Notes: generated by a model not told the origin, from the letters alone. 64,000 nucleotides of DNA from Chloroflexota bacterium (GCA_038040265.1 JBBPIP010000003.1:31573-95572), one strand, 5' to 3'; shown: positions 19,860 through 61,771, counted from the first letter of the stretch. Program-made: numbers and translations.

Positions 19860-19918
19860 GCGACCGAGCGAGGGATTTTCCTGGGGGACACCCGTACCAG
19901 TAGCCGGTCATTCTTCTC

Positions 19919-19934
19919 AGGACCAATTGGTCCT
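19919..19934. promoter_or_regulatory. perfect 16-bp palindrome AGGACCAATTGGTCCT (5-4-5 dyad)
   Basis: Read directly from the sequence. It is intergenic, about 60 nt from the GHL10 start (minus strand) and 54 nt from the crp-pseudogene GTG. Confidence 0.6.
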
Positions 19935-19987
19935 GCGCTCATTTGACGTCGATACCTAACGCACGCCCGAGCGTATCGTTCCGCGCC

Positions 19988-34495: not shown

Positions 34496-35779
34496 CTAGC
34501 GGACGTACTCGGCGCGGAACGCCTCGAAGCGCGCGTAGAACGCGTCGGTCGTCTCGCCGAATGCGGCGGCGAACGCCTGGTGCCATTCCTGGCCGCTGCC
34601 TACGCGTGTGCACCAGTCGCGGATCGTCGCGAGGCCCTTCGTGGCGAGAAGCCGATCGACGGCGAGGTAGCTCACGGCGAATGGCTTCGCGCTGCTGGGA
34701 AAGCTCGTCTCGAGCTGTCGGAGTGTCGCGGGGCTGGTCGCGGTGGTCAGCTGCCGTCTCGTGAACGTGTCGAGGTTCGCCGCCGGGATCAGGCCATCGG
34801 CGATCAGCGATCGATAGGCGAACGATTCCGCCATGCCTTCCGCGATCCACCTTGTGCCAACCATGCATGCGTTGCCGCCGAGCGCGTATTGCCAGAGGTG
34901 GATGTATTCGTGTGCCGCGAGCTCGATTCGTTCTGTATCGGCGGTCCACGTATCCGGCGCAGCCGCGGGCGGATTCGTCCACGCCGCGTTCGAGGTGACG
35001 ATCTCGAAGCTGTCTCCGGCCGTCAGACAGCAGAACTGCTGCGTCCCATCGCCCACGTAGACGTGCACGGTCGCGGGCCTGCGCCGTGTGCCGCCCGCGA
35101 ATGTTTCGAGGTATGCGCTCGCGTGCTGGACACCCTGGTGCACGAGCGCGATGTCCTTTGCGTTCACGCCGCTATCGATGCGGAACGTGACGCCGGCCGG
35201 ATCCGGCGGGGTGGGTGTGGGCATCGTGCCGTCGGGATTGAGGACGAGCACCTGCCAGAAAACCCCGATGTCCTCGAGCCAGGTGGCGCCCTCGATGAGC
35301 GGACGCACGTAGAGGCGGTAGGTGCCGGGAAGGAAAGGTGCCTGCAGGTTGAACTGGAACCACGCGACCTGGCCCGGCCCGACGTATGGAGCGGGCTGTT
35401 GCGCGATGCGATTGAAGCGCGGCCACCCGGTCGCGGGCGAGCCGAGCTGGCCGTCGCCCCCGAGGATGCTGGGCTGGTCCTGACCTGGTTCGCTCTGCCA
35501 CGTGCCGAGGTACGCAACCTCGCCCATCCGCCCGGCGAGCCATCCGCGCGAGCCTGAGTTGTAGTAGGCGAGCGTCGCCTGCGCCGTCCCTCCGGGACAG
35601 AGCCGCATATAGCCGCTCTGTCCGTACCAGGCCGCGTGAAAGCCCGGCAGCTTGCTCGGTGTTGCACTCGGCGGGGGAATTCCCGGACCGATGTCGGGTG
35701 TGCATGTGGCCGCCGCGGTCTTCGTGGCGGGCGGAACGAGCAAAGCGACGAACAGGACGATCGCGGCGATGGTGCGCAC
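34496..35779 (-). CDS. secreted protein: N-terminal beta-domain (paralogous to the 17706..19859 C-terminus) plus a putative HExxH metallopeptidase
   Basis: It has the signal peptide MRTIAAIVLFVALLVPPATKTAAATC. The shared domain contains WYGQSGY...PGTYRL..RPLIEG. It also has AAHEYIHLWQ. Confidence 0.7.
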   Translation of the reverse strand: MRTIAAIVLFVALLVPPATKTAAATCTPDIGPGIPPPSATPSKLPGFHAAWYGQSGYMRLCPGGTAQATLAYYNSGSRGWLAGRMGEVAYLGTWQSEPGQDQPSILGGDGQLGSPATGWPRFNRIAQQPAPYVGPGQVAWFQFNLQAPFLPGTYRLYVRPLIEGATWLEDIGVFWQVLVLNPDGTMPTPTPPDPAGVTFRIDSGVNAKDIALVHQGVQHASAYLETFAGGTRRRPATVHVYVGDGTQQFCCLTAGDSFEIVTSNAAWTNPPAAAPDTWTADTERIELAAHEYIHLWQYALGGNACMVGTRWIAEGMAESFAYRSLIADGLIPAANLDTFTRRQLTTATSPATLRQLETSFPSSAKPFAVSYLAVDRLLATKGLATIRDWCTRVGSGQEWHQAFAAAFGETTDAFYARFEAFRAEYVR

Positions 35780-35823: not shown

Positions 35824-36042
35824 CTATGACTCCGCCTCTTCCTCATCAGGCCATTCGAACTTGTCGAGCGCGGCACGGGTGAGGCCGCCGGTCTTGAACC
35901 ACTTATGGCCGTCCGGCTCGCCGCCGGGGCAGTATGCCCATCCGCCCTCTTCCGCGACGTTGAACGGGCTTGAAGGGTCGACGGGTGGTTTGCGCCGATG
36001 AGTCTTGCGTATGCAGATGAATTGGATGAGGGCGCGGTCCAT
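35824..36042 (-). CDS. small Cys/His protein, paralogue 2 of 3
   Basis: Sequence is MDRALIQFICIRKTHRRKPPVDPSSPFNVAEEGGWAYCPGGEPDGHKWFKTGGLTRAALDKF... Confidence 0.5.
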   Translation of the reverse strand: MDRALIQFICIRKTHRRKPPVDPSSPFNVAEEGGWAYCPGGEPDGHKWFKTGGLTRAALDKFEWPDEEEAES

Positions 36043-42801: not shown

Positions 42802-43551
42802 CTAGCGAAAGAGTCGGGAGACAGCGCGGACGAGCGTTTCGCCGGACAAGCCGTCGCCGTAGAAGTCGTCCCCGACGCAAACTTCGAAATGCAGATGCGG
42901 ACCACCCTGCGGATAGCCTGAGCTTCCGACCTCGCCGATCAGCACGCCGGCATCGACTCTTTGCCCAAGCACGAGCGGCTCCACCGCGGAGAGATGCGCG
43001 TACCGGGTGATCAGCCCTTTGCCGTGGTCGATCCACACCTGGCGTCCGCGGATGCGGTCGAGCGTCGCCGCGGGCGTGTATCCGAGCGTGAGCGCCTCGT
43101 ACAGCGCGATGTCCTGCTGCTCCATGGTCCAATCCAGAAAGCTCACGTCGACGCGGGCCACCGTTCCGCTCGCGGCAGCGAGGACCGGCGTCCCCGCGGC
43201 AGCGAGGAAGTCGATCCCCTCGTGGATGCCACCGCGGTAATCGCGCGGCGCGCCCGGCAAGAGCTCGGGGTCGAACGGGATGTCGCCGCCCTCGATGGGC
43301 AGGGCGAATAGTCCCCAGAGGCGCTTGTAGGCCTGCGCCCCGTTCTCGCTCAACGCCGGTGGCAGCGTCTCGACGGCGGGCATGGGTGTGTAATGCGGCG
43401 CTGGTGTGGGACGCCCGAGCTCAGGCCCGGAGCCCGACGCTGAGACGGCGACGGCCCCGAAGAGGACGACACAGAGGATCGCGAGGATGATTCGCACGGC
43501 GACCAACCCTACCGCCGGAAGCGTGCCAAAGGTCCCGCAATGCGGTGTCAT
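42802..43551 (-). CDS. M23 family metallopeptidase, membrane-anchored
   Basis: It has HEGIDF and GGPHLHFEV. Confidence 0.85.
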   Translation of the reverse strand: MTPHCGTFGTLPAVGLVAVRIILAILCVVLFGAVAVSASGSGPELGRPTPAPHYTPMPAVETLPPALSENGAQAYKRLWGLFALPIEGGDIPFDPELLPGAPRDYRGGIHEGIDFLAAAGTPVLAAASGTVARVDVSFLDWTMEQQDIALYEALTLGYTPAATLDRIRGRQVWIDHGKGLITRYAHLSAVEPLVLGQRVDAGVLIGEVGSSGYPQGGPHLHFEVCVGDDFYGDGLSGETLVRAVSRLFR

Positions 43552-43593: not shown

Positions 43594-44376
43594 ATGAGGG
43601 CGCCACGCGTGTTGGTCGCGTACGACGGCTCCGAGCCGGCGCAGATCGCGGTCGCAGCGATCGCTCCGTTGACGTGGCCGGTCAGCACACGGATCCGGCT
43701 GCTCGCCGTCCGAGAGGCGCATCTGCGCTTCCTTCGGCCGCTCGCGGACGCAATCCTCTTCGCCGAGCTCGAGGAGGACGTGGAGCGTGCGGCGAAACGT
43801 CTCGCGGCGGAGCTTCCAACCGGCGTCGCGGTCGAGCGGCGCGTCCTCCGTGGGCCCGCGCTGTCGTCCATCGTGATGGAAGCCGAGAGGTTCGAAGCCG
43901 ACCTCGTGGTACTCGGCAGTCGTAATCGCGGACCCCTGAGCTCCACCGTCCTCGGATCGATCGGCCGAGAGCTCGTAGCGCGTGCCGAATGGCCGGTCCT
44001 GATCGCGCGCGGTCAACACCTCGATCGAGTGCTTCTCGCTCATGACGGCACCGACGCGTCGCGAGTTGCCGTACGGATGGTCGGGTCGTGGTCGGCCTTC
44101 TCGCATGCAGCCGTCAAGATGTTCTCGGTCGCGGGAGCAAGTCCGAGCGCGGCGACCTTGCAGATCCTGACCGCGGCCGCGCTGGAAGACAGCGACCTCA
44201 TCGTTCTCGGTTCCGCGTGCGCGCATGGCCTCGAGCGTCTCCTGCATGGGGACCTCGCAGACGACCTCGTTCCGCGCACCCGCCGTTCGCTTCTCGTGGT
44301 GCCGGCGACGGCACGAGTCGAGCTGCCGATCGCGGTGCCGGGGCTCGTCGCCGCGACGAGCACTTCGGCGACCTGA
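43594..44376 (+). CDS. universal stress protein, tandem USP domains (second domain degenerate)
   Basis: ATG 43594. It contains VLVAYDGSEPA and LVVLGSRNRGPLSSTVLGS. Confidence 0.8.
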   Translation: MRAPRVLVAYDGSEPAQIAVAAIAPLTWPVSTRIRLLAVREAHLRFLRPLADAILFAELEEDVERAAKRLAAELPTGVAVERRVLRGPALSSIVMEAERFEADLVVLGSRNRGPLSSTVLGSIGRELVARAEWPVLIARGQHLDRVLLAHDGTDASRVAVRMVGSWSAFSHAAVKMFSVAGASPSAATLQILTAAALEDSDLIVLGSACAHGLERLLHGDLADDLVPRTRRSLLVVPATARVELPIAVPGLVAATSTSAT

Positions 44377-44684: not shown

Positions 44685-44975
44685 TCAGGTGGCGAGCGCG
44701 CGGATCTCGCGTGCGATCACCACGTCCTCACGCGCCGTGACCACGAGCACAGCGATCGGAGCAGCGACCAGAACGCGATCGCCCTTGCCTGACCCGTCGT
44801 CGACGTCTGGCACGCCGATCGAAGCGAGACGACGCACGATCGCCGTCCGCACGCTCGCGGCGTGCTCGCCGATCCCGCCGGTGAACACGACCGCGTCCAG
44901 ACGCGGGAGTGCCGTCGCCGCCGCCGCGATCGCTGGGGCGGCGGACCGTTCGAACACCGCGATCGCGAGCGCCGC
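44685..44975 (-). pseudogene. acetate kinase 3' fragment (last ~96 codons only)
   Basis: [56 protein letters not shown]... aligns with the C-terminus of ackA at 48537..49640. An in-frame TGA lies immediately upstream. The two copies share identical runs of 28 and 32 nt. Confidence 0.8.
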
Positions 44976-45018: not shown

Positions 45019-45087
45019 AGGGCCTTTCGGCTCGTCAGCGGGGCCATTTGGCCCTATGTGTTGTCGGTCTTAGGGCCCAAGGTGACC
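45019..45087. promoter_or_regulatory. three phased 5-4-5 dyads upstream of the Rieske operon
   Basis: The sites are 45019 AGGGCC-TTTC-GGCTCG, 45040 GGGGCC-ATTT-GGCCCT and 45072 AGGGCC-CAAG-GTGACC. They are spaced 21 and 32 bp apart. Confidence 0.55.
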
Positions 45088-45167: not shown

Positions 45168-45695
45168 GTGACGCACCAAGTTGGCGAGCCGAACGAAGCC
45201 CGCGGGCCGAACGAAGCGCGCGATCTCGGTAGACGGGACTTCATCAGCACCATCGGATTTTGGATCGCGACGGTGGCGTCGGCTGCAATCCTCGGTATCC
45301 CTTCCGCCCGCTTCGCGGTCGGCAAGTCCTTGGAAAAGGTGGTGGAGCACTGGGTTCCGGTCGGTGCCGTTGATGCGCTCAAGCCTGGCGAGTTCACATC
45401 TGTCGTCTATTCGTTCCGGGTCAAGGATGCGTGGCGCGAGGTGAAGAAGGAGGGGCTCATCTACGTGCGACCGGCACCGCCGGGAGGGGCCAGCGACTTC
45501 CAGGCGCTGTCCGGCGTCTGCACGCATCTGGGGTGCAATGTGCGGTGGAGCAAAGAGACGTCGCGTTTCGCCTGCCCCTGCCATTCCGGCGTTTACGACT
45601 CCGACGGAGCCGTGATCTCCGGTCCCCCACCGAGGCCGCTTCGCCAGCTCGAGACGCGAGTCACCGAAGACGGCGTTCTCGAAGCGAACATCTAG
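45168..45695 (+). CDS. Rieske [2Fe-2S] protein with a Tat-type signal anchor
   Basis: GTG 45168 follows GAGGGAG. It has [14 protein letters not shown] and CPCHSG. Confidence 0.85.
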
Positions 45696-45700
45696 CCGCC

Positions 45701-46753
45701 ATGAGCACAGTCCTTCGTTGGCTTGATCAGAGGACCGGCTGGAGCGGGCCCATACGAACCATCTTCCGCTACCCCGTGCCGGCGCACGCACATCACAATC
45801 CGCTCTTCACCATGGGCTCGCTGCTCTTGGTGCTCTTTGGGGTCCAAGCCTTCACGGGCGCGCTCATGGCGTTCTACTACGACCCTTCGCCCGAAGGTGC
45901 CTATGCCAGCGTGGACTACATGCAGTTCATCCTGCCGTTCGGGTGGCTCGTGCGGGGTGTCCATCACTGGGCGGCCTCGGCGATGGTCGTCATCGTGGTG
46001 CTCCATCTCCTGCGGACCTACCTCTATAGCGCGTACAAGAAGCCCCGGGAGTTGACATGGTTGGTGGGGGTAGTTCTCCTGCTGATCACCGTTTCCTTCG
46101 GCTTCACCGGATACCTGCTGCCCTGGGACCAGAAGGGTTTCTGGGCGACGCAGGTCGGCACCGAGATCGCGGGCTCGGTCCCCGCAATCGGGTCTGCGCT
46201 CCGCGACCTGATGCGCGGCGGCGCAGACATGGGCATTGCCACGCTGACGCGTTTCTACTCAGTGCACATGCTCCTGCTGCCGGGAGCGTTCGTGGTGCTC
46301 GTGCTGGCTCACCTGGCGCTCATGCGCCGCCACGGGCTCGCGCCGGCACTCGTCCGCAAGGGCGAAGGGCAGGAAAAGACCGTGCCCTTCTATCCGACGC
46401 ATCTCGCGATCGAAGCGGGGGTCGCCCTCGTCGTCATCGTGGGTCTGGTTGTGGCGGCAAACCTGGTCCCGGCACCGCTGGACCTGCGGGCCGACCCGAC
46501 CGACACGTCCTTCGTCCCACGTCCCGACTGGTACTTCCTCTTTTACTTCCAGCTGCTCACGTACTTCCCAGGCGGCCTCGAGGCCATCGGCACGGTGGCA
46601 ATACCGCTCTTCTTCTTCGGCTCGCTCGTTCTGCTGCCGTTCATCGATCGAGGAGCGGAGCGGAGACCTTGGCGAAAGCCGGTCACGTCCGTTGCGTTCG
46701 TTCTCTATGCGGTTGCGGTCATTCTCCTGACGATTCGTGGTGCCAGTGGCTAG
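45701..46753 (+). CDS. cytochrome b (b6 plus subunit IV fused type)
   Basis: ATG 45701. The four haem His residues sit in GVHHWAAS..VVLHLL and YSVHMLL..VLAHLAL. It also has the PDWYFLFYFQ motif. Confidence 0.85.
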   Translation: MSTVLRWLDQRTGWSGPIRTIFRYPVPAHAHHNPLFTMGSLLLVLFGVQAFTGALMAFYYDPSPEGAYASVDYMQFILPFGWLVRGVHHWAASAMVVIVVLHLLRTYLYSAYKKPRELTWLVGVVLLLITVSFGFTGYLLPWDQKGFWATQVGTEIAGSVPAIGSALRDLMRGGADMGIATLTRFYSVHMLLLPGAFVVLVLAHLALMRRHGLAPALVRKGEGQEKTVPFYPTHLAIEAGVALVVIVGLVVAANLVPAPLDLRADPTDTSFVPRPDWYFLFYFQLLTYFPGGLEAIGTVAIPLFFFGSLVLLPFIDRGAERRPWRKPVTSVAFVLYAVAVILLTIRGASG

Positions 46754-46799
46754 CGACATCTCAGCGACGGCCGGGGCGGCTGAAAGGATTCGTGGACGT

Positions 46800-47780
46800 A
46801 TGTGGAAGCGGCTCGTCGGCTTAATTCTCGTAGTCCTGATTGCCGGGGCCTGCGGCGCAGCTAACGCGGCCGCGCCCAACGAGCTCCTCGCGGCAAAAGG
46901 AGCGCCGAGCTCGCTGGCGCCTGACGACGGGGCGTGGAGGGATGCCGGCGTCATGACCGTCACGACGGCGGTGATCGCGGGTTCCGCGGCCAAACAAGGC
47001 GTCGAGGTCCAAGCGCAGGCCCTGTACAGCGGCACGGACATGTGGTTCCGGTTCGTTTGGGCCGATCCCACGCAAAGCGCAGACCGCTTCTGGACGTACG
47101 ACGGTACGAAGTGGACGTCCGGGGGCAACGAGGATCGTCTCTCGCTCCTCTGGGAGATCAGTCCCCTGGACAGGTTCCAGACGCGCGGCTGCACCGCGGC
47201 GTGCCATAACCCCGTGTCCGATCCCCTGGAGAAGTGGTACATGGTCACGCCCAGCTTCGATGCTCGTGGTGACAACTGGCAGTGGATCGCAGGCCGAACC
47301 AACCCAGTCGGCCAGGCCGACGACAAGACCCTCGTCGGTTTCCTTCCGACCGCCACGAGCCTGGGCTCGAGCTTCGTGAACGACGCGACCGAGAAGGGCG
47401 GCTCCACGAACAACAGGACCGCGGACGGCTTGGGTCCGGCGAAGATGCAGGATCCGTCGAAGCCGGCTTCCGCGGGAAGCGGATTCCTCCTCGCGTCTGA
47501 GGCCGTCAACATCGACGTGTCCAAGTTCAAGGCCGGTGACAAGGTCCCGCGCGACCTGCTCGCGCCGACGGTGGGCAGTCGCGGCGACATCGATGCCAAG
47601 GGCGTCTATGCCAGCGGCAAGTGGACGGTGGTCCTCCATCGCCACCTGGACACCGGGAACGACGATGACATCCAGTTCGTTCCGGGTAGGACCATTCCGT
47701 TCGGCCTGGCAGTGTTCGATAACGTCTCAGGGTTCAGTCATACGGTGTCGGGCGATCCTCTCTATCTGAAGTTCAAGTAG
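46800..47780 (+). CDS. lipoprotein with an EB_dh / cytochrome c-552-like haem-binding domain (one CxxCH)
   Basis: ATG 46800. It has the lipobox LIAGAC and the haem c motif CTAACH. The domain reads GTDMWFRFVWAD...LAVFDN. Confidence 0.7.
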   Translation: MWKRLVGLILVVLIAGACGAANAAAPNELLAAKGAPSSLAPDDGAWRDAGVMTVTTAVIAGSAAKQGVEVQAQALYSGTDMWFRFVWADPTQSADRFWTYDGTKWTSGGNEDRLSLLWEISPLDRFQTRGCTAACHNPVSDPLEKWYMVTPSFDARGDNWQWIAGRTNPVGQADDKTLVGFLPTATSLGSSFVNDATEKGGSTNNRTADGLGPAKMQDPSKPASAGSGFLLASEAVNIDVSKFKAGDKVPRDLLAPTVGSRGDIDAKGVYASGKWTVVLHRHLDTGNDDDIQFVPGRTIPFGLAVFDNVSGFSHTVSGDPLYLKFK

Positions 47781-47854: not shown

Positions 47855-47870
47855 GGTGCCATTCGGCCCT
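47855..47870. promoter_or_regulatory. 5-4-5 dyad upstream of the PNPOx-like gene
   Basis: GGTGCC-ATTC-GGCCCT, which is AGGGCC-GAAT-GGCACC on the other strand. It lies 110 nt upstream of ATG 47980. Confidence 0.5.
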
Positions 47871-47979: not shown

Positions 47980-48441
47980 ATGAGAAGTCTGAGTCACGAG
48001 GCGGACGAAGCACAGTTCGACGCGGCGATTGAAGTTCTAACGGAGGACGAGTGTGTCGCCCGGCTCCACTTTCGCGACATTGGGCGGATCGCCTTTGACT
48101 TCGAAGGCAAGGTAGAGATCTTTCCGGTCAACTACGGCATGGACGGCGCGATCATCGTCTTCCGGACCGGCCCCGGCACTAAGCTCGAGAGGGTGCCAAA
48201 GTCAGAGGTCGCGTTTGAAATAGATAGCTGGGATCCTGAGATCGGCGTCGGTTGGAGCGTGGTGGCTCGAGGCCTCGCCGAGGAGATCACTACGGATCCG
48301 GGACGAGTAGCGGAGCATCTCCGCTGGGTGCCCGTCCATCCGGTCGCTCCCGGCGACCGCTCGCATTGGCTCGCGATCAAGCCGACCGAAATCACCGGAC
48401 GGGAGTTCCACGTGCCGCCTCCTCAGGGTGAGCGTGCGTAG
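47980..48441 (+). CDS. pyridoxamine 5'-phosphate oxidase family (split-barrel flavin/F420-binding) protein
   Basis: 153 aa. Sequence reads ...IGRIAFDFEGKVEIFPVNY...FEIDSWDPE..GWSVVARG. Confidence 0.7.
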   Translation: MRSLSHEADEAQFDAAIEVLTEDECVARLHFRDIGRIAFDFEGKVEIFPVNYGMDGAIIVFRTGPGTKLERVPKSEVAFEIDSWDPEIGVGWSVVARGLAEEITTDPGRVAEHLRWVPVHPVAPGDRSHWLAIKPTEITGREFHVPPPQGERA

Positions 48442-48536: not shown

Positions 48537-49640
48537 TCAATCGCTGAGCGCACGGACCTCGCGCGCGATCACGAGATCCTCACGCGCCACGACGACGACG
48601 ACCGTGACCGGACCGGCGACGAGGACTCGGTCGCCGTCGACCGCGTTGTCAGCAACGCTTGGTGCGCCGATCGAAGCGAGACGACGCACGATTCCCGCCC
48701 GCACGGTAGCGGCGTGCTCGCCGATCCCGCCCGTGAACACGACCGCGTCCAGACGCGGGAGTGCGGTCGCCGCCGCGGCGATCGCTCCAGCCGCCGAACG
48801 CTCGAATACGGCGATGGCGAGCGCGGCGCGGTCGTCGGTCGTCGCGATCGCGACGAGCTCGCGCATCTCGGCCGTCCGACCGGACAGCGCGAGCAGACCC
48901 GAGTGATGCTCGAGCACGTCCTCGAGCGCGCGCGCGTCGAGCCTGTGGTCCCGCTGCGCGGCGAGCAGGATGCCGGGGTCGACCGATCCCGCCCGCGTTC
49001 CCATGACGAGGCCCTCGAGAGGCGTCATTCCCATCGAGGTGCTGACCGAGCGGCCGTGCCACACCGCGGTCACCGAGCAGCCATTGCCAAGGTGGGCGAC
49101 GACGATGCCGAGGTCGGCGCGCCCCAGGAGCGCGGCCGCGCGCTCGACCGACCACGTGACCGAGAGACCGTGGAATCCATACCGCCGATACCCCCACTCC
49201 CAGTACCAGTCATACGGAAGCGCGTAGACGTACCCCTCCTCCGGCAGCGTCGCGTGAAAGGCCGAATCGAAAGCTGCCGCGTGCGGGATGCGAGGTAGCG
49301 CGCTGCGCGCAGCGGCGATGACCTCAGCAGCTGGGGGGTTGTGGAGCGGCGCGAGCCAGGCAAGCTCGCGGATCCTCTTCAGCACGGCGTCATCGATCAC
49401 GGTCGTTCGTGTGAAGACCGAGCCGCCGTGGACCACGCGATGGCCGACCGCGTCGATGGTGGCGACATCGACTCCCGCATCTTTCACAGCTCGGAGCGTC
49501 TGACGAAACGCCTCGGACGCTTCGCCGACGCCGCGCATGGGAACCGTGACGCTGGCCTCGGCGAGCTCCGAATCGCGGGCGAGCACACTTGCTTTGAGCG
49601 TCGACGACCCGGCGTTCAGGACGAGCACGCGCTGCTGCAT
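48537..49640 (-). CDS. ackA: acetate kinase
   Basis: Internal ATG 49640 ([16 protein letters not shown]). It contains HRVVHGG and GFHGLS. Confidence 0.9.
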
Positions 49641-49697
49641 CCGGGCGAGACTAGGCCGCGCCGGGGCTGGTCGCAGGGGGTGCAAGGGAGAGACGAC

Positions 49698-52118
49698 ATG
49701 TCGATGAAGACGAAAGCACTCACCAACGCATCGCTCAGCGAGGATGAGCTCCGTCGCATCGACGCGTACTGGCGAGCGGCGAATTACCTCGCAGTCGGTC
49801 AGATCTACCTGCTCGACAATCCTCTCCTGCGCGAACCGCTGCGCGCGGAGCACGTGAAGCCCCGCCTCCTCGGCCACTGGGGCACGACCCCGGGACTGAA
49901 CTTCATCTACGTGCACATGAACCGCGCGATCAAGAAATGGGATCTCGAAGCCATCTTCATCGCGGGTCCGGGGCACGGCGGCCCCGCGGTACTCGCCAAC
50001 GTCTATCTCGAAGGCACCTACAGCGAGATCTACCCGGACATCACGCGCGATACCGCGGGCATGACGAAGCTCTTCCGGCAGTTCTCATTTCCTGGCGGCG
50101 TCCCGAGCCACGTTTCGGCGGAGATCCCGGGTTCGATCCACGAGGGTGGGGAACTCGGCTACTCGCTAGCGCACGCGTACGGCGCTGCGCTCGACGACCC
50201 GTCGCTCCTCGTTTGCTGCGTTATCGGGGACGGGGAGGCGGAGACGGGGGCGCTGGCCGCCTCATGGCACTCGAACAAGTTTCTCGATCCGATCCACGAC
50301 GGCGCCGTGCTGCCGATCCTGCACCTGAATGGTTACAAGATCGCGAACCCAGCGGTCCTCGCACGGATGCCGAAGCGCGAGCTGGTAGCGCTGCTCGAGG
50401 GATACGGACACGTCCCGATCTTCGTCGAAGGCGACGAGCCCAGCGCAATGCATCACCTGATGGCGGCCGCAGTCGATCGCGCTATCAGTGAGATCCGCCG
50501 CGTCAAAGACGATGCACGCCGTACCGGCCACACCCAACGGCAGCCCACACCTTTGATCGTGCTCCGCACGCCGAAGGGATGGACCGGACCGAAGGTGGTC
50601 GACGGAAAGCCGGTCGAAGGCACATGGCGTTCGCACCAGGTGCCGGTCGACGCGGCCCGGGCGAATCCCGAGCACCGCGCCGTCCTCGAGAAATGGCTGC
50701 GCTCGTACCGGCCCGAGGAGCTATTCGACGAGAACGGCAGGCTCGTCCCCGAGCTCGCGGCCCTTGCGCCGGAGGGCGAGCGCCGAATGAGCGCGAACCC
50801 GCGCGCGAACGGCGGATCGCTGCTCAGGGATCTCGACATGCCGGACTTCCGTGCGTACGGGGTCGCCGTTCCCGCGCCTGGCGCGACCTCCGCGGAGCCC
50901 ACGCGCGTCCTCGGAACGTTCCTCCGCGACGTGATCGCTCGGAACCAGGACCGGTTCCGGCTCCTCGGCCCCGACGAAACCACGTCGAACCGGCTGGGCG
51001 CAGTGTTCGAGGTGACGGACCGCGTCTTCAGCGACGACATCCTCCCGACCGACGAGCACATCGCACCGCACGGGCGCGTCATGGAGGTGCTGTCGGAGCA
51101 GATGATCGAAGGTTGGCTCGAGGGATATCTCCTCACCGGTCGCCACGGGCTCTTCAACTGCTACGAGGCCTTCATTCACATCGTCGACTCGATGTTCAAC
51201 CAGCACGCGAAGTGGCTGAAGGTCACGCGCGCGCTCCCCTGGCGCCGGCCGATCGCGTCGCTCAACTACCTCCTCTCCTCGCACGTCTGGCGCCAGGATC
51301 ACAACGGCTTCTCGCACCAGGACCCGGGATTCATCGACCACGTCGTGAACAAGAAGGCCGAGATCATCCGCGTCTACCTGCCGCCTGATGCAAACACGCT
51401 GCTGTCAGTCGCGGACCACTGCCTGCGCAGCCGCAATTACGTCAACGTGATCGTCGCCGGGAAACAGATGGAGCAGAACTGGCTCTCGATTGACGAGGCG
51501 ATCCGCCACTGCACGCGCGGTATCGGCGTCTGGGAGTGGGCGAGCAACGACGAAGGCGGCGACCCCGACGTCGTGCTCGCGTGCTCAGGCGACGTGCCGA
51601 CGCTTGAGACTCTTGCCGCGGTGGATCTCATACGACGGCACCTGCCCGATCTGCGGGTGCGCGTCGTGAACGTCGTCGACCTCATGCGACTCCAGCAGGA
51701 CACCGAGCACCCCCACGGTCTGCCGGACCGGGACTTCGACGCGCTCTTCACGACGCACAAGCCGGTGATCTTCGCGTACCACGGATATCCGTGGCTCATC
51801 CACCGCCTGGCGTACCGACGAAAGAACCATCCGAACCTGCACGTGCGCGGGTATAAGGAGGAAGGCACGACGACGACGCCCTTCGACATGGTCATGCTCA
51901 ACGACCTCGACCGGTTCCATCTGGTAATGGATGTCATCGATCGGGTGCCGGGTCTTCGCGAGCGGGCCGGCGAGGTGCGTCAGCTCATGCAGGAGAAGCG
52001 GCTTGCATGCCGGGCGTACACACGCGAGCACGGTGAGGATGCGCCGGAGATCACAGGATGGAGCTGGCCGGCCGGTCCGCGAAAGTCGGCCCGAAGCTCC
52101 ACAGGTTCGCGTAGCTGA
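49698..52118 (+). CDS. xfp: phosphoketolase (xylulose-5-P/fructose-6-P)
   Basis: ATG 49698 follows GGGAGAG. It contains [15 protein letters not shown] and GDGEAETG. It is divergent from ackA. Confidence 0.9.
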
Positions 52119-52385: not shown

Positions 52386-52401
52386 AGGGCCGAAAGTCAC
52401 C
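52386..52401. promoter_or_regulatory. 5-4-5 dyad upstream of the small Cys/His gene
   Basis: AGGGCC-GAAA-GTCACC lies 66 nt upstream of the start at 52320 (minus strand). Confidence 0.5.
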
Positions 52402-52419: not shown

Positions 52420-52926
52420 CTACGGCCGCGATACCTCGAGCTCGAACCGGAGCCCTTCTCTATCGGGCCGCGCTCGCAGCGGAATGCCGCAGTCGCGAAG
52501 CAGGTCGGTCATTCGGACGTTGTCGGATAGGACGTAACCCTCCAGGACGTCGACGCCGCGCGACGCGGCGACCTCGGCGAGCTTCCTAAGAAGGATGGTT
52601 CCGAGGCCTCGCCTCTGGTGGCTATCCGCGATCACCAGGGCGACCTCGGCACGATGTTCGGTCGTACGCACGTACCAGGTGTGGCCGACGCAGCGCCCAT
52701 CCGGCGCGAAGGCGATCACTCCTGACTGCTCGACCGCAGCCCGAGCCGCGCTGGGCAGATGTACCGCGGTCGTGGCGAAACGCATCGCTCGAGAGTGGAT
52801 CGAGAGCGAACGCAGGAGTCCGACCACCGCGTCTTCGTCGCCCACGTCGGCAGGGCGCAGGTGGACGATCGAGCCGTCGCGGAGAATAGTCGCGATGGTG
52901 CGTGCCGACCGGGCCAGTGTTTCCAC
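52420..52926 (-). CDS. GNAT family N-acetyltransferase
   Basis: GTG 52926 lies inside ORF 52420..53676. It has the acetyl-CoA motif HQRRGLGTILLRKL. Confidence 0.75.
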   Translation of the reverse strand: METLARSARTIATILRDGSIVHLRPADVGDEDAVVGLLRSLSIHSRAMRFATTAVHLPSAARAAVEQSGVIAFAPDGRCVGHTWYVRTTEHRAEVALVIADSHQRRGLGTILLRKLAEVAASRGVDVLEGYVLSDNVRMTDLLRDCGIPLRARPDREGLRFELEVSRP

Positions 52927-53000
52927 CGCTCGATGGTGAACCGGGACCGCGCCACCGACCAGGGCCGTTGGGCCACCGGCCGAAGGGTCCGTCGGCCCAC

Positions 53001-53579
53001 CTAGACCCGGACGAGGAACTCCCAGAGCGAGGCAATCAAGAAAAGCGGTGTGATGACGACGTAGGCGAGTAGCGCGTCTCGCAGGCGATCGGTCGGCAGG
53101 CCGAGCCTCGTGGCTGTCGCGGTCTTGGATCTGAGCTGTGCCCACGCGCCGACTCCGACGCGAACCCCGACGCCACCCGCGATCGAATACGGGACGAGCT
53201 GCAGGATGAGCGTGACGAGGTAATAGACCGCGCTCCCGGGGTCGGCTAGACGGCTCCGGTGCTCGCCATCGAGGACCACGATCCCGCCGATCCATCCGCG
53301 ATACGCGACGACCGGGTAGAGGCCGACGATGGAGGTGCCGAAGGCCGTACTGGTGAGGCCCCCGGCGACGAGATTCGAGGAGAAGTCGAGCAGCGCGGCG
53401 CGGACATGATCGCCAGACCGATTTGCGGTGGTGATCGCGCTCGATCGGGCCGCGCCCACCACCGCATCGCGCTGCGCTATCGCGAGGGCGTTCCCGCTCG
53501 TGGCCATAACGATTCCGAAGATGACAGAGAGCGCGTAGCTGACGAACACGGTCGCGATCGCCACGCGAGCCGCCACCAC
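53001..53579 (-). CDS. SpoIIM/DUF95-like integral membrane protein
   Basis: 192 aa with 5-6 TM helices. The family assignment is tentative. Confidence 0.5.
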   Translation of the reverse strand: MVAARVAIATVFVSYALSVIFGIVMATSGNALAIAQRDAVVGAARSSAITTANRSGDHVRAALLDFSSNLVAGGLTSTAFGTSIVGLYPVVAYRGWIGGIVVLDGEHRSRLADPGSAVYYLVTLILQLVPYSIAGGVGVRVGVGAWAQLRSKTATATRLGLPTDRLRDALLAYVVITPLFLIASLWEFLVRV

Positions 53580-53646: not shown

Positions 53647-53684
53647 AGGGCCGAACGTCACTTCGCCCAAGGACAAGTGGCCCT
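53647..53684. promoter_or_regulatory. two 5-4-5 dyads upstream of the BON gene
   Basis: The sites are 53647 AGGGCC-GAAC-GTCACT and 53669 AAGGAC-AAGT-GGCCCT. Confidence 0.5.
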
Positions 53685-54434: not shown

Positions 54435-54667
54435 GAACACGCAGGCATCGCCGATTGGGCGGTGCGGTCACACATAACATTCACAGGCAGCGCCGCCGGA
54501 TCTTCCGCTTTTCGCTGAACTGCTTTTCGTGTGGGCACGAGGCCGGCGAGGTGGATTCGATCGCGGACGCGAAGCTCAGGCGCTGTGAACGTTGCGGTGG
54601 TCAGGTCTTCGTCGAGCGCGACATCGGGACGCCGGTCTACGTCGACGACCGAAGACTCCGACGCTGA
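54428..54667 (+). CDS. possible FmdB-like zinc-ribbon protein
   Basis: Sequence reads FRFSLNCFSCGHEAGEVDSIADAKLRRCERCGGQVFVER. No convincing start codon lies near the finger. It overlaps the ATPase 3' end by about 30 nt. Confidence 0.3.
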   Translation: MVGTRRHRRLGGAVTHNIHRQRRRIFRFSLNCFSCGHEAGEVDSIADAKLRRCERCGGQVFVERDIGTPVYVDDRRLRR

Positions 54668-57141
54668 ATCCGCTTGATGACTTCGGCTGGGACTATCCCG
54701 GCAGCGGCCACCGCAGCGGCCACGATCCAGCCCACCGGAGACGGTGCGACGACGTGCAGCAGCTCGGCCACGAACGGCACGTACTCCGCGAGGACTAGCG
54801 ATCCGACCGTGGCAGCGAGGACCCAGACCAGCGCTCTGTTTCCGCCGGTTGCCGCGCGCCAGATCGGCCCCTCACCGACGCGCTCGGCCAGGACGAGGAA
54901 GACCTGGCCGATCACGAGGGTGGCGATCGCGAGGCCGCGAGCGCGCTCCTCGCCCATGTCGAGACTGCCGAGGTAGAGCGCGAGAACGCCGATCGCCAGA
55001 CCGACGCCACGCGCGAGCATTCCCAGGACCGAGCCGCGCGGCAGCAGGTCGTTCGCGCGGCGGCGTGGCGGCCGCCGCATGAGATCGGCGGGCGCGGGAT
55101 CCGCCTCGAAGACGAGCGAGGCCGTGGGATGCACGACGATTTCGAGCCACACCAGGTGGACCGGGAAGAGCAGGAGCGGCGCGCCGGCGATCGGAACGAC
55201 GAGCGCCGCGAGCAGCAGCGGCACATGGAACGCCACGAGGTAGCCGAACGCGTGCCGGAGGTTCTCGAAGATGCGTCTTCCGTCGCGAACCGCCGAGACG
55301 ATCGTCGAGAAGTCGTCGTCCATCAGAACGAGCGTCGCTGCGGAACGCGCGACCTCGGTGCCGCGGAGTCCCATGGCGATACCGATGTCCGCCTCGCGCA
55401 GCGCCGGCGCGTCGTTCGTCCCATCTCCGGTCATCGCGACGACGTGGCCACCCGCACGAAGCGCGCGCACGATCCGGTACTTCTGCTCGGGCCGGACTCG
55501 CGCGAAGACACTCGCGCGCTCGACAAGAAGAGCAAGGCTCGCGTCGTCGGCGCCGTCGATGTCCGCGCCCGTCGCGACTTCGCCGTCGTCCAGGCCGATC
55601 GCCTTCGCGACCGCGGCGGCCGTCGCCGGGTGGTCGCCGGTGATCACGATCACCCGGACGCCGGCCGCGCGGCACTCGGCGAGCGCCTCGTTGACGCCGG
55701 ACCGGAGCGGATCGACAAAGGCGATCAATCCGCGGAGCTCGAGGTTCTGCTCGTCACTCGCACGATCGCCTTCGACGGAAACGCGCGGTGACTCGGCCAC
55801 CGCGATCACCCGCATGCCACGCTCGGCGAGCTCCTGGTTCGCGGAAAGCACGCTCTCGCGGAGCGCCGGATCGGTGTTGCCGTGCGAGAGGATGCCTTCC
55901 AGCGATCCTTTTGCGTACGCCGCGCATCCGTCTGCGGTGCGCCACGCGTGCGTTACGTATCGGTCGTTGGCGTCGAAGGGATGATCGCGGAGCAGTTCGC
56001 CCGCGTGGAGTGCATCCACGTCGAGACCCCGCGCACCGGCCGCGTGAACGATCGCAATGTCGACGGGATCGTACGGACGCGGCTCTGAGGCGAGTACGGC
56101 CGCGCGCATTACGGCCTGCTCGTCGAAGCCGGGCGCGGCCCAGACCGATGCGACCTCGATGGTCCCGAGCGTCAGGGTGCCGGTCTTGTCGACGCAGATG
56201 ACGCTCGCGGCCCCCAATGTCTCGACTCCCGCGAGCCGGCGCACGAGCGCGCGATCGCGGGCGAGGCGCCAAGCTCCGAGACCGAGGTAGAGGGTGAACA
56301 CCATGGGGAACTCTTCGGGGATCGCGGCCATGGCCAGGCTGACGCCCGCGATGATCGCCGCATCGAGGCTCGAGCCGCGGAGGAGCTCGAGCGCGACGAC
56401 TGCGATGCAGAACGCGCCTGCGACGATCGAGAGCTGCACGACGAGCCGCCTGATGAGTGTCTGCAGCGGAGTGGGCGCTGGCTTGATCGCCGCGACCAGC
56501 GTGCCGATCTGCCCGTAGCGCGTGCGCGGACCTGTCGCGGTGACGATCGACGCGCCACGGCCCGCTCGCACCGTTGTGCCCGCGTAGAGCAGGGCATTCT
56601 CGTCCTCGATCGGCAGCTTCGTCACGGGATGCGACTCTCCGGTGAGCGCGCTCTCGTCGAGCACGACCTCGGTGCCCTCCACCAGGCGCGCGTCCGCCGC
56701 CACGATGTCGCCTTCACGGACAAGGAGCAGATCGCCGGGAACGACCTCGCGCGCCGAGATCCGCTGCTCGACACCGTCGCGTACGACGATCGCCGTCGGG
56801 GCAGTCAGCCGTCGCAGGCTTTCGAGCGCGCGCTCCGCGCGTAGCTCGAGGATGACGCTCACCGCGACGATCGGAACGAGCGCGATGAGCGTGACGATCG
56901 CGTCGCGCGGGTTTCCAAGGAGGATGTACGTCGCGCTCGCGACGACGAGGAGCGCGGCCATGGGATCGGTGACCGCCGATCGGACGACCGTCCAGACGTC
57001 GCCGCTCGGGCCTTCGGGGACGAGGTCGTTCGGCCCGGACGAGACGAGTCGAGCCTGTGCGTCGACCGCGCTCAGCCCCGAGCTCACCCGATCCGGCCGG
57101 GCGCGCGCTGGGTCGCGAACGACGTCCGCGGCGACGGCCAC
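54637..57141 (-). CDS. cation-transporting P-type ATPase (type II, Ca2+/CtpF-like)
   Basis: It has DKTGTLT, TGDHPATA and MTGDGTNDAPAL, plus 10 TM helices. Confidence 0.9.
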   Translation of the reverse strand: MAVAADVVRDPARARPDRVSSGLSAVDAQARLVSSGPNDLVPEGPSGDVWTVVRSAVTDPMAALLVVASATYILLGNPRDAIVTLIALVPIVAVSVILELRAERALESLRRLTAPTAIVVRDGVEQRISAREVVPGDLLLVREGDIVAADARLVEGTEVVLDESALTGESHPVTKLPIEDENALLYAGTTVRAGRGASIVTATGPRTRYGQIGTLVAAIKPAPTPLQTLIRRLVVQLSIVAGAFCIAVVALELLRGSSLDAAIIAGVSLAMAAIPEEFPMVFTLYLGLGAWRLARDRALVRRLAGVETLGAASVICVDKTGTLTLGTIEVASVWAAPGFDEQAVMRAAVLASEPRPYDPVDIAIVHAAGARGLDVDALHAGELLRDHPFDANDRYVTHAWRTADGCAAYAKGSLEGILSHGNTDPALRESVLSANQELAERGMRVIAVAESPRVSVEGDRASDEQNLELRGLIAFVDPLRSGVNEALAECRAAGVRVIVITGDHPATAAAVAKAIGLDDGEVATGADIDGADDASLALLVERASVFARVRPEQKYRIVRALRAGGHVVAMTGDGTNDAPALREADIGIAMGLRGTEVARSAATLVLMDDDFSTIVSAVRDGRRIFENLRHAFGYLVAFHVPLLLAALVVPIAGAPLLLFPVHLVWLEIVVHPTASLVFEADPAPADLMRRPPRRRANDLLPRGSVLGMLARGVGLAIGVLALYLGSLDMGEERARGLAIATLVIGQVFLVLAERVGEGPIWRAATGGNRALVWVLAATVGSLVLAEYVPFVAELLHVVAPSPVGWIVAAAVAAAGIVPAEVIKRIQRRSLRSST

Positions 57142-57340
57142 GTCATCAGGCTACGGTCAGGGTGCGTCTGCGGCGAAGGTCGTTGGTCACGGCCCAGCCC
57201 GCCGTCCGGCCCTATCTCTGGGACCCTGCTGAACCTAGCCTCGGCTCAACGTTGGGCCGCTTGTCGGTCTGTCGTCCGAAGGAGTGAGCAGAATGTGCGC
57301 AGTCAGTGCCGAGACGAAACGGAACAGTGGGAATGGTGAG

Positions 57341-58614
57341 ATGAAGAAGACCTCGCTCACCGTCACGGACAACCGCACGGGCGCGACGTACGAGATCCCG
57401 ATCGAGAACGGTGCCGTCCACGCGACGGAGCTGCGGAAGATCAAAGCGGGCCCGACGACTTCGGCCTCGTCTCGTACGACCCGGGGTTTCTCAACACCGC
57501 CGCCTGCCGCAGCGCGATCACGTACATCGACGGGGACCGCGGGATCCTGCGCTACCGCGGGTACCCCATCGAGGAGATCGCGGGGAAGAGGACTTTCCTC
57601 GATGTCGCTTACTTGATCCTGAACGGCGAGTTCCCGACAGACGAGCAGCGGAAGTCGTGGAGCTACGAGGTCACGCATCACACCTTCCTGCACGAGAACG
57701 TGAAGAAATTCATCGACGGGTTCCGCCACGACGCGCACCCGATGGGCATCCTCATCAGCACGCTCGCGGCGCTCTCGACCTTTTACCCGGAAGCGAAACG
57801 CATTTTCGAGGCCGACACACGCCAAAAGCAGATCGTCCGCCTCATCGCCAAGACGCCGACGATCGCCGCCTTCGCGTACCGGCACGCGACCGGCCTCCCT
57901 TATGTCTATCCAGACAACGACCTTTCATACGCCGGCAACTTCCTCAACATGCTGTGGAAGACGACCGAGCTCAAATACTCGCCAGACCCCGTGCTCGAGC
58001 GGGCCCTCGACGTGCTCTTCGTACTCCACGCCGATCACGAGCAGAACTGCTCCACCTCGACCATGCGCGTGGTCGGGAGCTCCCACTCCGATCCCTATTC
58101 GGCGGCAGCGGCCGCTACTGGTGCGCTCTACGGTCCGCTTCACGGCGGCGCGAACGAGCAGGTCGTGCGGATGCTGCAGGAGATCGGTTCGGTCGCCCGC
58201 GTGAGCGACCACATCAAGCGCGTCAAGGCCGGCGAGATGCGCCTCATGGGCTTCGGACACCGTGTCTACAAGAACTACGACCCGCGCGCGCGGATCATCA
58301 AGCGCGTCGCGGAGGAGGTCTTCCAGGTCACGGGACGCAACCCGCTCATCGACATCGCGATCGAGCTCGAGAAGATCGCGCTCGAGGACGACTACTTCGT
58401 GAGCCGGAAGCTCTACCCGAACGTGGACTTCTACTCCGGGATCATCTACCAGGCCATGGGCTTCCCCGTGGACGTGTTCCCGGTCCTCTTCGCGATCGGG
58501 CGCATGCCGGGCTGGCTCGCGCAGTGGCAGGAGGGGCTGCTCGACCCTGAGCAGAAGATCGCGCGGCCGCTCCAGCTCTACATCGGTCCGGCGGAGCGCC
58601 ACGTAGCGGATTAG
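57341..58614 (+). pseudogene. gltA: citrate synthase with a single-base frameshift near 57451 (or a sequencing error)
   Basis: MKKTSLTVTDNRTGATYEIPIENGAVHATELRKIKAGP is in the frame of ORF 57284. DDFGLVSYDPGFLNTAACRSAITYIDGDRGILRYRGYPIEE...HADHEQNCSTS...GFGHRVYK continues in the frame of ORF 57613..58614. The junction is in GGGCCC. Confidence 0.75.
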
Positions 58615-60143: not shown

Positions 60144-60379
60144 GGCGTTTACCTCCTGAAATCCACTCGATAGTTCCGGTTCGCGTGCCGGGCGACTAGG
60201 ACCGAACGGCGTTCGCTCGTGGGGCCTTCGGCACCGCCGCCGTCGGGTTGCCCCCGGCCCGGCACCCTCCGGTCGCCGAGCGTCCCCGTTCAGGTCGTCC
60301 GTACTTGCAGTCAGAGCCGTCCGGCACTCGTGGCGTGCTCCTCAGGGGCAAGAGACTTCTGTCGGAGGTGACTCCTGTG

Positions 60380-60598
60380 ATGTTTCCCTATGGCGACCCC
60401 GGTTATATGGGCTGGATGATGCTCGGCTCAGTCGTCTTCTGGATCACGCTCGTCGCGGTCGCGGTCTTCGCGATCGTTCGGTTCAGCCCGCGTCGCGATG
60501 GCGTGGATGCGACGACGATCCTCAAGGAGCGGCTCGCCCGCGGCGAGATCTCTCCAGAGGAATACCAGGCGCGCAGCGGTCTGATCCTCGGCCATTAA
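60380..60598 (+). CDS. SHOCT domain membrane protein
   Basis: ATG 60380 follows GGAGGTG. One TM helix is followed by ILKERLARGEISPEEYQAR. Confidence 0.7.
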   Translation: MFPYGDPGYMGWMMLGSVVFWITLVAVAVFAIVRFSPRRDGVDATTILKERLARGEISPEEYQARSGLILGH

Positions 60599-60692: not shown

Positions 60693-60708
60693 AGGGACGA
60701 TTGGCACT
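60693..60708. promoter_or_regulatory. 5-4-5 dyad upstream of a small hydrophobic ORF
   Basis: AGGGAC-GATT-GGCACT lies 57 nt upstream of GTG 60765. Confidence 0.45.
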
Positions 60709-60764: not shown

Positions 60765-60890
60765 GTGCCGATCGCTCTTGGGTCCGACTTCATGATTCTG
60801 CTCATGGCTCTCGCGGGGCTATCTCTCACCGGGCTCGCGATCGCTCGCGATATCCTCCGCGCGCCGAGGCCGCGCTCAGTCGCGTCCTAG
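60765..60890 (+). CDS. possible 41-aa hydrophobic peptide
   Basis: The GTG is preceded by AAAGGGGA. Sequence is VPIALGSDFMILLMALAGLSLTGLAIARDILRAPRPRSVAS. It is below the ORF-track cut-off. Confidence 0.25.
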   Translation: MPIALGSDFMILLMALAGLSLTGLAIARDILRAPRPRSVAS

Positions 60891-61771
60891 CGCGGCCCAG
60901 AAGTCCCGCGGGCGACCAGCACAGAGCACGTCGCGCCGTACAGGACCTTCCGCGCCACGCTGCCGAGCAGGAGTCGCTTCAGACCGGTCCGTCCGCGTGT
61001 CCCCATCGCGATCAGGTCCGCCAGGGCAGGGGTCGCGGCAGCAAGGATCTCCTCGCCGGCGGACCCGACGCGCACCTCCGAGGTGACGTCGAGGCCTGCC
61101 TCTCTCAAGCTGTCAGCCGCTTTCTTCGCGAGCGACTCGTGCTCCTCGCGCACACGCGCAAGCTCCTCGCGGCGCGCGGCCATGACCTCATTGCGCATGG
61201 TCGGCGATACGCCCGAGGAGAGCGGTTCCACCACGTGCGCGACACTCACAACTCGCACAGGCGCATTGAAAATGCCTGTCGCAACAAGACGGCACGCCGC
61301 GTCCGCGTCGCTCGACCCGTCGTACGCGACGACGACGCTCGACACCGCGGTCGTCCGCGCGACGAGCACCGGACAGGGCGCGTGATCGATGACTTCGGCC
61401 CCCACTGATCCGAGCACCGCTGAAACGACGGCTCCGCGTCCATGCGCCCCGACCACGATCAGGTCGGGACGCCACCGCTCCGCCTCTTCGATGATCGCGC
61501 TCGCGGGTCGGCCGTAGAGCGCGTCAGCCTCGACCGTTCTCTCCGCACCGCGGAGCGGCTCAGCGAAGTTCTGAATGTCCTCGCCTGCCGATCTCAGTGC
61601 CGTGGCGATGAACTCGTTCCGCATCGCGTCAGGGAGATTCTCCCCGGTGGGAATGGGTCCCGCCGATCGGATCACCCGAATCGTCGAGCCTTTCGGGATG
61701 CAGAGGCTCGCCACGAGCGTGCGGGCGTGCTCGGCTCCGGACGAATCGTCGGCCGCAAAGAGAATTCGCAT
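60887..61771 (-). CDS. universal stress protein, tandem USP domains
   Basis: It contains MRILFAADDSSGAEHA...LIVVGAHGRGAVVSAVLGSV and ...LIAMGTRGRTGLKRLLLGSVA. Confidence 0.85.
   Translation of the reverse strand: MRILFAADDSSGAEHARTLVASLCIPKGSTIRVIRSAGPIPTGENLPDAMRNEFIATALRSAGEDIQNFAEPLRGAERTVEADALYGRPASAIIEEAERWRPDLIVVGAHGRGAVVSAVLGSVGAEVIDHAPCPVLVARTTAVSSVVVAYDGSSDADAACRLVATGIFNAPVRVVSVAHVVEPLSSGVSPTMRNEVMAARREELARVREEHESLAKKAADSLREAGLDVTSEVRVGSAGEEILAAATPALADLIAMGTRGRTGLKRLLLGSVARKVLYGATCSVLVARGTSGPR

Follow-up and report, generated by a model that had tools for sequence, protein, structure and literature searches.

The window analysed here is a stretch of 64,000 nucleotides from a member of the Chloroflexota, not of the Actinobacteria (GCA_038040265.1 JBBPIP010000003.1:31573-95572), whose nearest named relatives are Candidatus Limnocylindria. 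Its G+C content is 66.5%, and about 13-14% of it is intergenic according to a coding map made with a self-trained codon model and then corrected using Pfam and homology. Several of the intergenic regions carry a 16-bp dyad with the consensus A-G-K-G-M-C-G-W-W-C-G-K-C-M-C-T, which was recovered de novo and independently from the window and from related loci. The dyad is found before genes for a universal stress protein (USP), a Rieske/cytochrome b/EB_dh operon, a PNPOx-like protein, a small Cys/His protein, a BON-domain protein, a CtpF-like P-type ATPase and citrate synthase (Table 1). It is enriched between genes, is conserved in relatives, occurs in tandem copies of regular spacing and stands at a fixed offset from a -10-like hexamer. 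We predict that it is the operator ('Dev box') of a NarL-family response regulator of the DosR/DevR/OsdR type, a reading that we consider probable.

The initial annotation listed ten 16-mers of this kind; each occurs once in the window and had been placed correctly. That the dyad is recurrent beyond chance is borne out by intergenic enrichment, by de novo motif discovery and by a matrix built from relatives only. With at most one mismatch, the strict pattern GGGMC-N4-GKCCC has 15 intergenic and 14 coding matches in the window (binomial P=2e-6); control patterns with identical half-sites gave 8 intergenic and 16 coding matches for a 3-bp gap, and 4 and 17 for a 5-bp gap. When all 5-mer dyads were counted without bias, GGGCC with a 4-bp gap stood out (8 intergenic vs 5 coding). 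The half-site by itself was not prominent among hexamers enriched in the window; only the gapped dyad was. When all intergenic DNA of the window was searched de novo for palindromes, blind to the listed sites, the motif of highest information content was AGGGCCnnnnGGCCCT.

The relatives are loci fetched around orthologues of the BON gene, whose products are 88%, 82%, 57%, 56% and 52% identical to that of the window; the BON protein used as a query against the genome collection found no relative. Motif discovery in the intergenic DNA of four relatives only (5.8 kb) yielded a single motif, nGnGnCGnnCGnCnCn, with 30 sites, which is the same dyad. When the matrix from these sites was run on the window, 5 of 7 matches with a score of at least 12 were intergenic (P=6e-4), as were 8 of 15 with a score of at least 10 (P=2e-4). 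The motif is commoner between genes than within them, relative to their shares of the DNA.

Seven of the ten listed sites stand, and three (45072, 19919 and 60198) are poor instances. The Rieske promoter had been credited with a trio of sites. The pair 45019/45040, 21 bp apart, is sound, but 45072-45087 scores 5.7, has a G at an invariant C, and is probably not a box because it overlaps the presumed -10 region of the 45040 box, CAAGGT (45078-45083). In both 19919 and 60198, the invariant half-site G is replaced by A. The former belongs to a perfect 18-bp palindrome, CAGGACCAATTGGTCCTG, at 19918-19935 between a GHL10-family gene and a Crp/Fnr gene; since the invariant Dev-box G is broken and no -10-like hexamer lies at the right offset, this palindrome is probably the site of another protein. 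Boxes absent from the earlier list were found at 43522 and 57176/57198, with weaker ones at 52961 and 60313.

Base conservation within the dyad follows that of the known Dev box. Among 34 sites, the G at half-site position 4 and the C at position 6 are invariant (68 of 68 each) and the centre (position 8) is A or T in 66 of 68 half-sites; in the relatives-only set the corresponding G and C are present in 36 of 36 each. Bases vary at the less critical positions (K at 3 and M at 5). Half-site G4, C6 and the central A/T correspond to G5, C7 and W9 of the Mycobacterium tuberculosis Dev box, which has the half-site GGGAC and A/T at its central positions; there C7 is found in all 47 mapped DevR sites, and mutation of G5 or C7 abolishes ~90% of binding (PMC3177182).

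The spacing of boxes is likewise regular. Of the 14 pairs of intergenic boxes, nine have a spacing of 21-24 bp (5 at exactly 22) and two have one of 32 bp (P=1e-6). Tandem pairs in the window are 45019/45040, 53647/53669 and 57176/57198; the promoters with boxes at 47855, 52386 and 43522 have a single recognisable box. Dev boxes in M. tuberculosis are also tandem and in helical phase, ~21 bp apart, as at -42.5 and -63.5, with a minimum of two required (PMC3177182). When promoters were aligned on the proximal box, downstream information was found only at the T, A and T of TANNNT, starting 30.5 nt from the box centre. A [TC]ANNNT hexamer starts at exactly this offset in 9 of 30 promoters, and at any other offset in 0-2 (P=8e-11). 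Because a -10 hexamer occupies -12 to -7 and this one starts 30.5 nt from the centre of the box, the promoter-proximal box would be centred near -42.5, as for DevR. In the window the register is seen for the USP, Rieske, PNPOx, small Cys/His, SpoIIM-like, BON, ATPase and citrate synthase genes, and for the plus strand after 60693. A scan for the sigma-70 consensus between 43 and 62 kb gave no promoters; this fits activator-dependent promoters and proves nothing alone.

When the corresponding promoters of relatives were checked, the positions of boxes were found to be kept before orthologues at BON, USP, PFOR and ATPase/citrate synthase. Boxes lie 82-117 nt upstream of BON in the window and in loci L081, L082, L088 and L176, and the box centre lies 64.5 nt upstream of USP in the window, L081 and L082. 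PFOR is preceded by boxes in L088, L084, L021 (a Limnocylindria locus) and L176, and the divergent ATPase/citrate synthase region has boxes in the window and L082. Genes of regulon type in the window are those for USP, the PNPOx-like protein, Rieske/cytochrome b and the P-type ATPase; box-associated genes in the relatives include those for USPs, PFOR, copper oxidase and malic enzyme.

The closest published operator is that of OsdR, the Streptomyces coelicolor orthologue of DevR/DosR, for which the consensus 5'-AGGGCCGATCGGCCCT has been reported (PMC5069765). The 16-nt palindromic consensus is identical here, down to its leading A, its C at half-site position 5 and its inner G..C, and in both cases the boxes precede start codons by roughly 50-130 nt. 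The two also have target families in common: among the genes predicted to be controlled by OsdR are those for USPs, the pyridoxamine 5'-phosphate oxidase SCO0214, a DksA/TraR zinc-finger protein and Crp-like regulators (PMC5069765), and these four families occur in both sets. The present system differs in belonging to another phylum, in a more A/T-rich centre (GAAC, GAAA, ATTC), in the frequency of GTCAC and GGCAC half-sites, and in putative targets such as Rieske/cytochrome b/EB_dh, BON, PFOR (in relatives), the CtpF-like ATPase and citrate synthase. The regulator gene is not within the window; in this genome it would be a putative orthologue of osdR.

Several features are shared with M. tuberculosis DevR beyond base recognition and spacing. 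Divergent promoters share a box pair, as do tgs1-Rv3131 in M. tuberculosis, and USP genes are among the targets in both. A CtpF-type ATPase is a member of the M. tuberculosis DevR regulon. A box before the kinase/regulator operon of one relative, described below, suggests autoregulation of the DevR kind. In contrast, half-site positions 6 and 8, which are A and T in the M. tuberculosis consensus (GGGACT), are C/A and G here; no hspX, nitroreductase or narK2-type targets were seen here; and the organism is an uncultured soil Chloroflexota. NarL/NarP resemble the predicted system in family (REC plus a GerE/LuxR helix-turn-helix, HisKA_3 kinases) and in recognition of inverted repeats. The NarL heptamer, TACYYMT in a 7-2-7 arrangement, bears no resemblance to GKGMC-N4-GKCMC.

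No NarL-type regulator is encoded within the 64-kb window. Candidates were sought in relatives using M. tuberculosis DosR, with a query sequence entered by hand, a caveat carried by all identities to DosR given here. Its best matches were regulators 54-60% identical in actinomycete loci, as expected for DosR. In L175, which extends the L084 lineage, genes for hyp202, hyp154 and a GAF/GAF/HisKA_3 kinase are followed by that for a DosR-like regulator (RR2), which shares 48% full-length identity with DosR and has exactly the same helix, S-E-K-T-V-K-N-Y-V-S. This kinase/regulator operon is preceded by a strong box, AGGGCCGAAAGTCACA, and the neighbouring copper oxidase and USP genes by box pairs. 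In L052 (Chloroflexia), a regulator 50% identical to DosR, with the helix KTVKNYVS, adjoins USP, ATPase, xfp and ackA genes. The base-reading residues of DosR are K179, K182 and N183 (PMC13486717), and the helix K179-T-V-K182-N183-Y is identical in these Chloroflexota regulators. A GAF-GAF-HisKA_3 kinase is encoded directly upstream of the DosR-type regulator in L084/L175 and L088, and none in the window; L084 and L088 also have a small-kinase/regulator pair with the helix KTVDTY.

The agreement with the OsdR consensus and Dev-box bases, the tandem phasing and the presumed -42.5 position favour the proposal, made in the initial annotation, of a DosR-box-like operator marking a stress or anaerobiosis regulon. 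Its suggestion of a NarL/DosR-type regulator encoded outside the window is probably correct as well, regulators with an identical helix adjoining the orthologous clusters in related Chloroflexota. From the DNA sequence we infer the binding protein, activation rather than repression, and low oxygen or redox as the signal. A sensor kinase, which in relatives is of the DevS type (GAF-GAF-HisKA_3), would phosphorylate the regulator, whose gene would lie outside the window. The regulator dimer would then bind the 16-bp dyad, often cooperatively at two boxes 21-23 bp apart; the proximal box would overlap the -35 region, its centre ~42 nt before the transcription start, and weak promoters having a -10 element only would be activated. 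Tandem pairs in divergent regions (SpoIIM-like/BON, ATPase/citrate synthase) may serve both directions. The predicted regulon would comprise USP, the Rieske/cytochrome b/EB_dh operon, the PNPOx-like and small Cys/His proteins, BON, the CtpF-like ATPase and citrate synthase.

Some points weigh against this assignment. The sites were selected with matrices, which makes the figures for invariant bases partly self-reinforcing, and orthologous promoters are not independent observations. The strong 60693 box has no convincing target. That this organism has a DosR-type regulator is an assumption based on relatives with BON proteins only 46-57% identical, and the closest relative, L081, has a different NarL-type pair by the cluster: a regulator with the helix KTIKHY and a membrane kinase that has two transmembrane segments but lacks a GAF domain.

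The regulators linked to the cluster in relatives are the basis on which the boxes were assigned to a DosR-type regulator, and they also make the L081-type regulator (helix KTIKHYMT) the main rival. Were it the binding protein, the membrane kinase with its extracytoplasmic loop would respond to an envelope or external signal instead of oxygen sensed by haem/GAF domains. The L081 pair, from the locus with the BON protein 88% identical, adjoins USP-ackA-xfp-BON-ATPase and is preceded by boxes 22 bp apart; loci chosen by the L081-type regulator alone have tandem nnRGAC-N4-GTCYnn, 21-23 bp apart, upstream of the kinase gene; and the regulator retains K179, K182, N167, T180, Y184 and R197. We nevertheless think this unlikely. 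The L081-type regulator shares only 37% identity with DosR and has N183 replaced by H; it matches DevR no better than NarL, which ranks first for it among solved structures. Its own boxes, TSRGAC...GTCYSA, differ at the outer positions from AGGGCC...GGCCCT. In 80 loci, the strict dyad was not enriched near regulators 60-74% identical to it (3.3 per 10 kb vs 3.1 for distant ones), homologues at 76-79% identity lie in unrelated gene contexts, and the regulator is absent from the window and from L082.

The tandem TSRGAC-N4-GTCYSA boxes, 21-23 bp apart, were seen before HisKA_3 kinase genes in L099, L100, L106, L108, L112, L117, L172 and L173. They look like an autoregulatory operator of the KTIKHY pair, which is widespread in Chloroflexota, related to but distinct from the Dev box.

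A Crp/Fnr-family protein such as that encoded at 20536-21213, named as a candidate in the initial annotation, is a very improbable binder. A CRP-like 4-6-4 core, GTGA-N6-TCAC, can be read into the 5-4-5 geometry, and L084 has another Crp-like gene with a box 63 nt upstream; yet OsdR is itself predicted to control Crp-like genes (PMC5069765), which would explain the L084 box without Crp as its binder. The helix of the window protein, R-M-T-V-N-K, lacks the R-E-x-x-x-R signature of CRP and the E-x-x-S-R signature of FNR, and there is no N-terminal Cys cluster. The protein is only 30% identical to the L084 Crp-like protein, and none of L081, L082 and L088, which conserve the motif, was found to encode a homologue. 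The invariant C6 would fall on the first base of the spacer that CRP does not contact, and tandem boxes 22 bp apart are a hallmark of Dev boxes. CRP and FNR boxes (TGTGA-N6-TCACA or TTGAT-N4-ATCAA) were also compared directly and rejected: the half-site here is A-G-K-G-M-C, and no TTGAT-type half-sites were found among the sites. That the dyads are structural elements, such as terminator hairpins in RNA or DNA or a dispersed repeat, is hardly credible: although the arms are G+C-rich inverted repeats and the 45040 site was flagged as terminator-like in a simple scan, only 2 of 34 sites have fully complementary arms, variable arm positions do not covary (complementary in 15 cases vs 15.9 expected, and 10 vs 13.8), terminator-like sites are not enriched (7 vs 7.0 expected), and the boxes keep a conserved distance to genes and a fixed register with the -10-like hexamer.

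In full-text literature searches, no description of a DosR-type regulon came up for Chloroflexota or Limnocylindria. The Limnocylindria-like Chloroflexota, abundant soil and sediment bacteria, have yet to be cultured, and next to nothing is known of how their genes are regulated. If the DosR-type assignment is right, a well-understood dormancy or low-oxygen switch could be transferred to them with a ready operator model, the genes answering soil anoxia would include Rieske/cytochrome b/EB_dh, PFOR, the CtpF-like ATPase, BON, USP and the small Cys/His protein, and the boxes would offer concrete probes for DNA affinity purification sequencing (DAP-seq) and for the interpretation of metatranscriptomes. 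It would also mean that DevR-type activation keeps its promoter geometry across phyla. A wider and more tentative idea is that the DosR/OsdR switch might be no actinobacterial speciality, and might instead be an old cross-phylum module of soil Terrabacteria, with the operator, the 21-22 bp tandem and the -42.5 geometry fixed between Actinomycetota and Chloroflexota; in an L081-like sub-lineage the boxes might have been taken over by another NarL-type regulator and a membrane kinase, for a signal other than haem-sensed oxygen.

Table 1. Boxes and genes in the part of the window that carries the dyad. Hexamers are given with their offset, in nt, from the box centre.
Feature	Position	Strand	Box sequence or Pfam match	Score	Hexamer	Remarks
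M23 peptidase gene	start 43497	-				divergent from USP
Box	43522..43537		CGTGCC-AAAG-GTCCCG	10.3 (relatives-only matrix)	TAGCCG at +29.5	M23 peptidase/USP divergent region
USP, two Usp domains	43594..44376	+	Usp 2e-26			putative target
Box	45019..45034		AGGGCC-TTTC-GGCTCG	13.9		Rieske operon promoter, upstream (secondary position)
Box	45040..45055		GGGGCC-ATTT-GGCCCT	11.3	CAAGGT at +30.5	Rieske operon, promoter-proximal
Rieske/cytochrome b/EB_dh operon	45168..47780	+				putative target
Rieske protein	start 45168 or 45117	+	Rieske 3.5e-11			
Cytochrome b	45701-46753	+	Cytochrome_B 1.8e-52			
EB_dh haem-domain protein	46800-47780	+	EB_dh 4.3e-33			
Box	47855..47870		GGTGCC-ATTC-GGCCCT	14.1	GATGCT at +31.5, geneward	upstream of PNPOx-like gene
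PNPOx-like protein	47980..48441	+	Pyridox_ox_2 4e-23			putative target
ackA, intact	48537 to about 49640	-				divergent from xfp
xfp	about 49697-52118					
Small conserved Cys/His protein, 89 aa	52051..52320	-				putative target with own box
Box	52386..52401		AGGGCC-GAAA-GTCACC	15.9	GATTGT at +30.5, minus strand	upstream of small Cys/His gene
GNAT gene	52420-52926	-				
Weak candidate box	52961..52976		AGGGCC-GTTG-GGCCAC	9.8	CACCAT at +30.5, minus strand	upstream of GNAT gene
SpoIIM-like gene	53001-53579	-				
Box, strongest	53647..53662		AGGGCC-GAAC-GTCACT	20.1	CATGCT at +30.5, minus strand	proximal for SpoIIM-like, distal for BON
Box	53669..53684		AAGGAC-AAGT-GGCCCT		TAGAGG at +30.5	BON-proximal; 22 bp from 53647 box
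BON-domain (OsmY-like) protein, 224 aa	53760..54434	+	BON x3, 2.7e-43			putative target
Cation P-type ATPase (CtpF-like)	54637..57087	-	E1-E2_ATPase 6e-48; Cation_ATPase_C			putative target
Box	57176..57191		AAGGTC-GTTG-GTCACG	10.3	TAGCCT at +30.5, minus strand	ATPase-proximal
Weak box	57198..57213		CCCGCC-GTCC-GGCCCT	6.0	TAGCCT at +30.5	citrate synthase-proximal; 22 bp from 57176 box
Citrate synthase gene	start about 57293	+				divergent from P-type ATPase
SDR gene						after citrate synthase, alongside SHOCT gene
Weak candidate box	60313..60328		AGAGCC-GTCC-GGCACT	10.9	GAGACT at +31.5	56 nt upstream of SHOCT gene
SHOCT-domain gene	60377-60598	+				
Box, strong	60693..60708		AGGGAC-GATT-GGCACT	17.1	GAGAAT at +30.5, plus strand	between convergent SHOCT (+) and USP (-)
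USP, two-domain	60887-61771	-				downstream of PFOR genes that run past window end

The window USP preceded by the 43522 box is 85% identical to the L082 USP, by homology to which the starts of the M23 peptidase and USP genes were set. The small Cys/His protein matched no Pfam family and is 73% identical to a 69-aa syntenic protein of L081 (L081 8949-9158); it has the conserved residues YYCIAH...FCVNG...H.W, and a weak paralogous stretch is found at 35857-35940. Another weak box, at 52984, lies 23 bp from that at 52961. The centre and right half of the 53647 box form the best-conserved island in an alignment of seven BON upstream regions, and the 22-bp box pair before BON recurs in L081 (9889/9911) together with its TAGAGG hexamer in the same register.

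The start of the P-type ATPase was taken from an 816-aa gene call in L091, and the equivalent ATPase/citrate synthase region of L082 has boxes at 13442, 13474 and 13496. The citrate synthase gene (57293-58614) is apparently frameshifted near 57445: the first ~52 residues of the L082 orthologue align with one frame (57293-57589) and its residues 54-441 with a second (57442-58605, 94% identity), either through an assembly error or because the gene is a pseudogene. The candidate target of the 60693 box is either a 41-codon open reading frame (60765-60890, plus strand), from whose GTG the box centre is 64.5 nt away and which has no detectable homologue among the fetched loci, or a transcript antisense to the USP gene.

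The gene set put forward in the initial annotation holds in part. USP, PNPOx-like, BON and CtpF-like ATPase genes have boxes, whereas xfp and ackA have none of their own in the window, L081 or L082, and the PFOR promoter lies beyond the window end; in the window xfp, ackA and PFOR are neighbours, not demonstrated targets. An xfp query returned 80 loci; they show little conservation of gene order, and their degree of xfp identity does not follow taxonomy. In several actinomycete genomes (Friedmanniella, Micromonospora, Microtetraspora), xfp is preceded by canonical GGGAC-N4-GTCCC boxes 90-150 nt upstream (L018 9872, L063 9873, L078 9909, L056 949), and DosR orthologues (54-60% identical) are encoded a few kb from xfp in L018, L063 and L070, which suggests that xfp belongs to the DosR/OsdR regulon in those organisms.

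Beside the Rieske promoter lies a 3' fragment of ackA (the C-terminal ~96 aa; 44694-44972, minus strand), which matches the 3' end of the intact gene (48546-48824) with 82% DNA identity. Compared with L082, the Rieske/cytochrome b/EB_dh/PNPOx block resembles an insertion between USP and ackA, and the ackA fragment looks like its insertion scar.

Two further repeats were seen in the window. A G+C-rich 33-bp element containing GGGGCAGGGGCCCCTGGGCG occurs in two copies (3937-3969 and 3993-4025, 94% identical) that are intergenic, before the gene at 4099, and unrelated to the dyad. A stretch of ~320 bp, 73% identical between 17730-18046 and 35255-35571, forms the 3' parts of two minus-strand genes, encoding a GHL10-family protein and a 427-aa protein without a Pfam family, which have a paralogous C-terminal domain in common.

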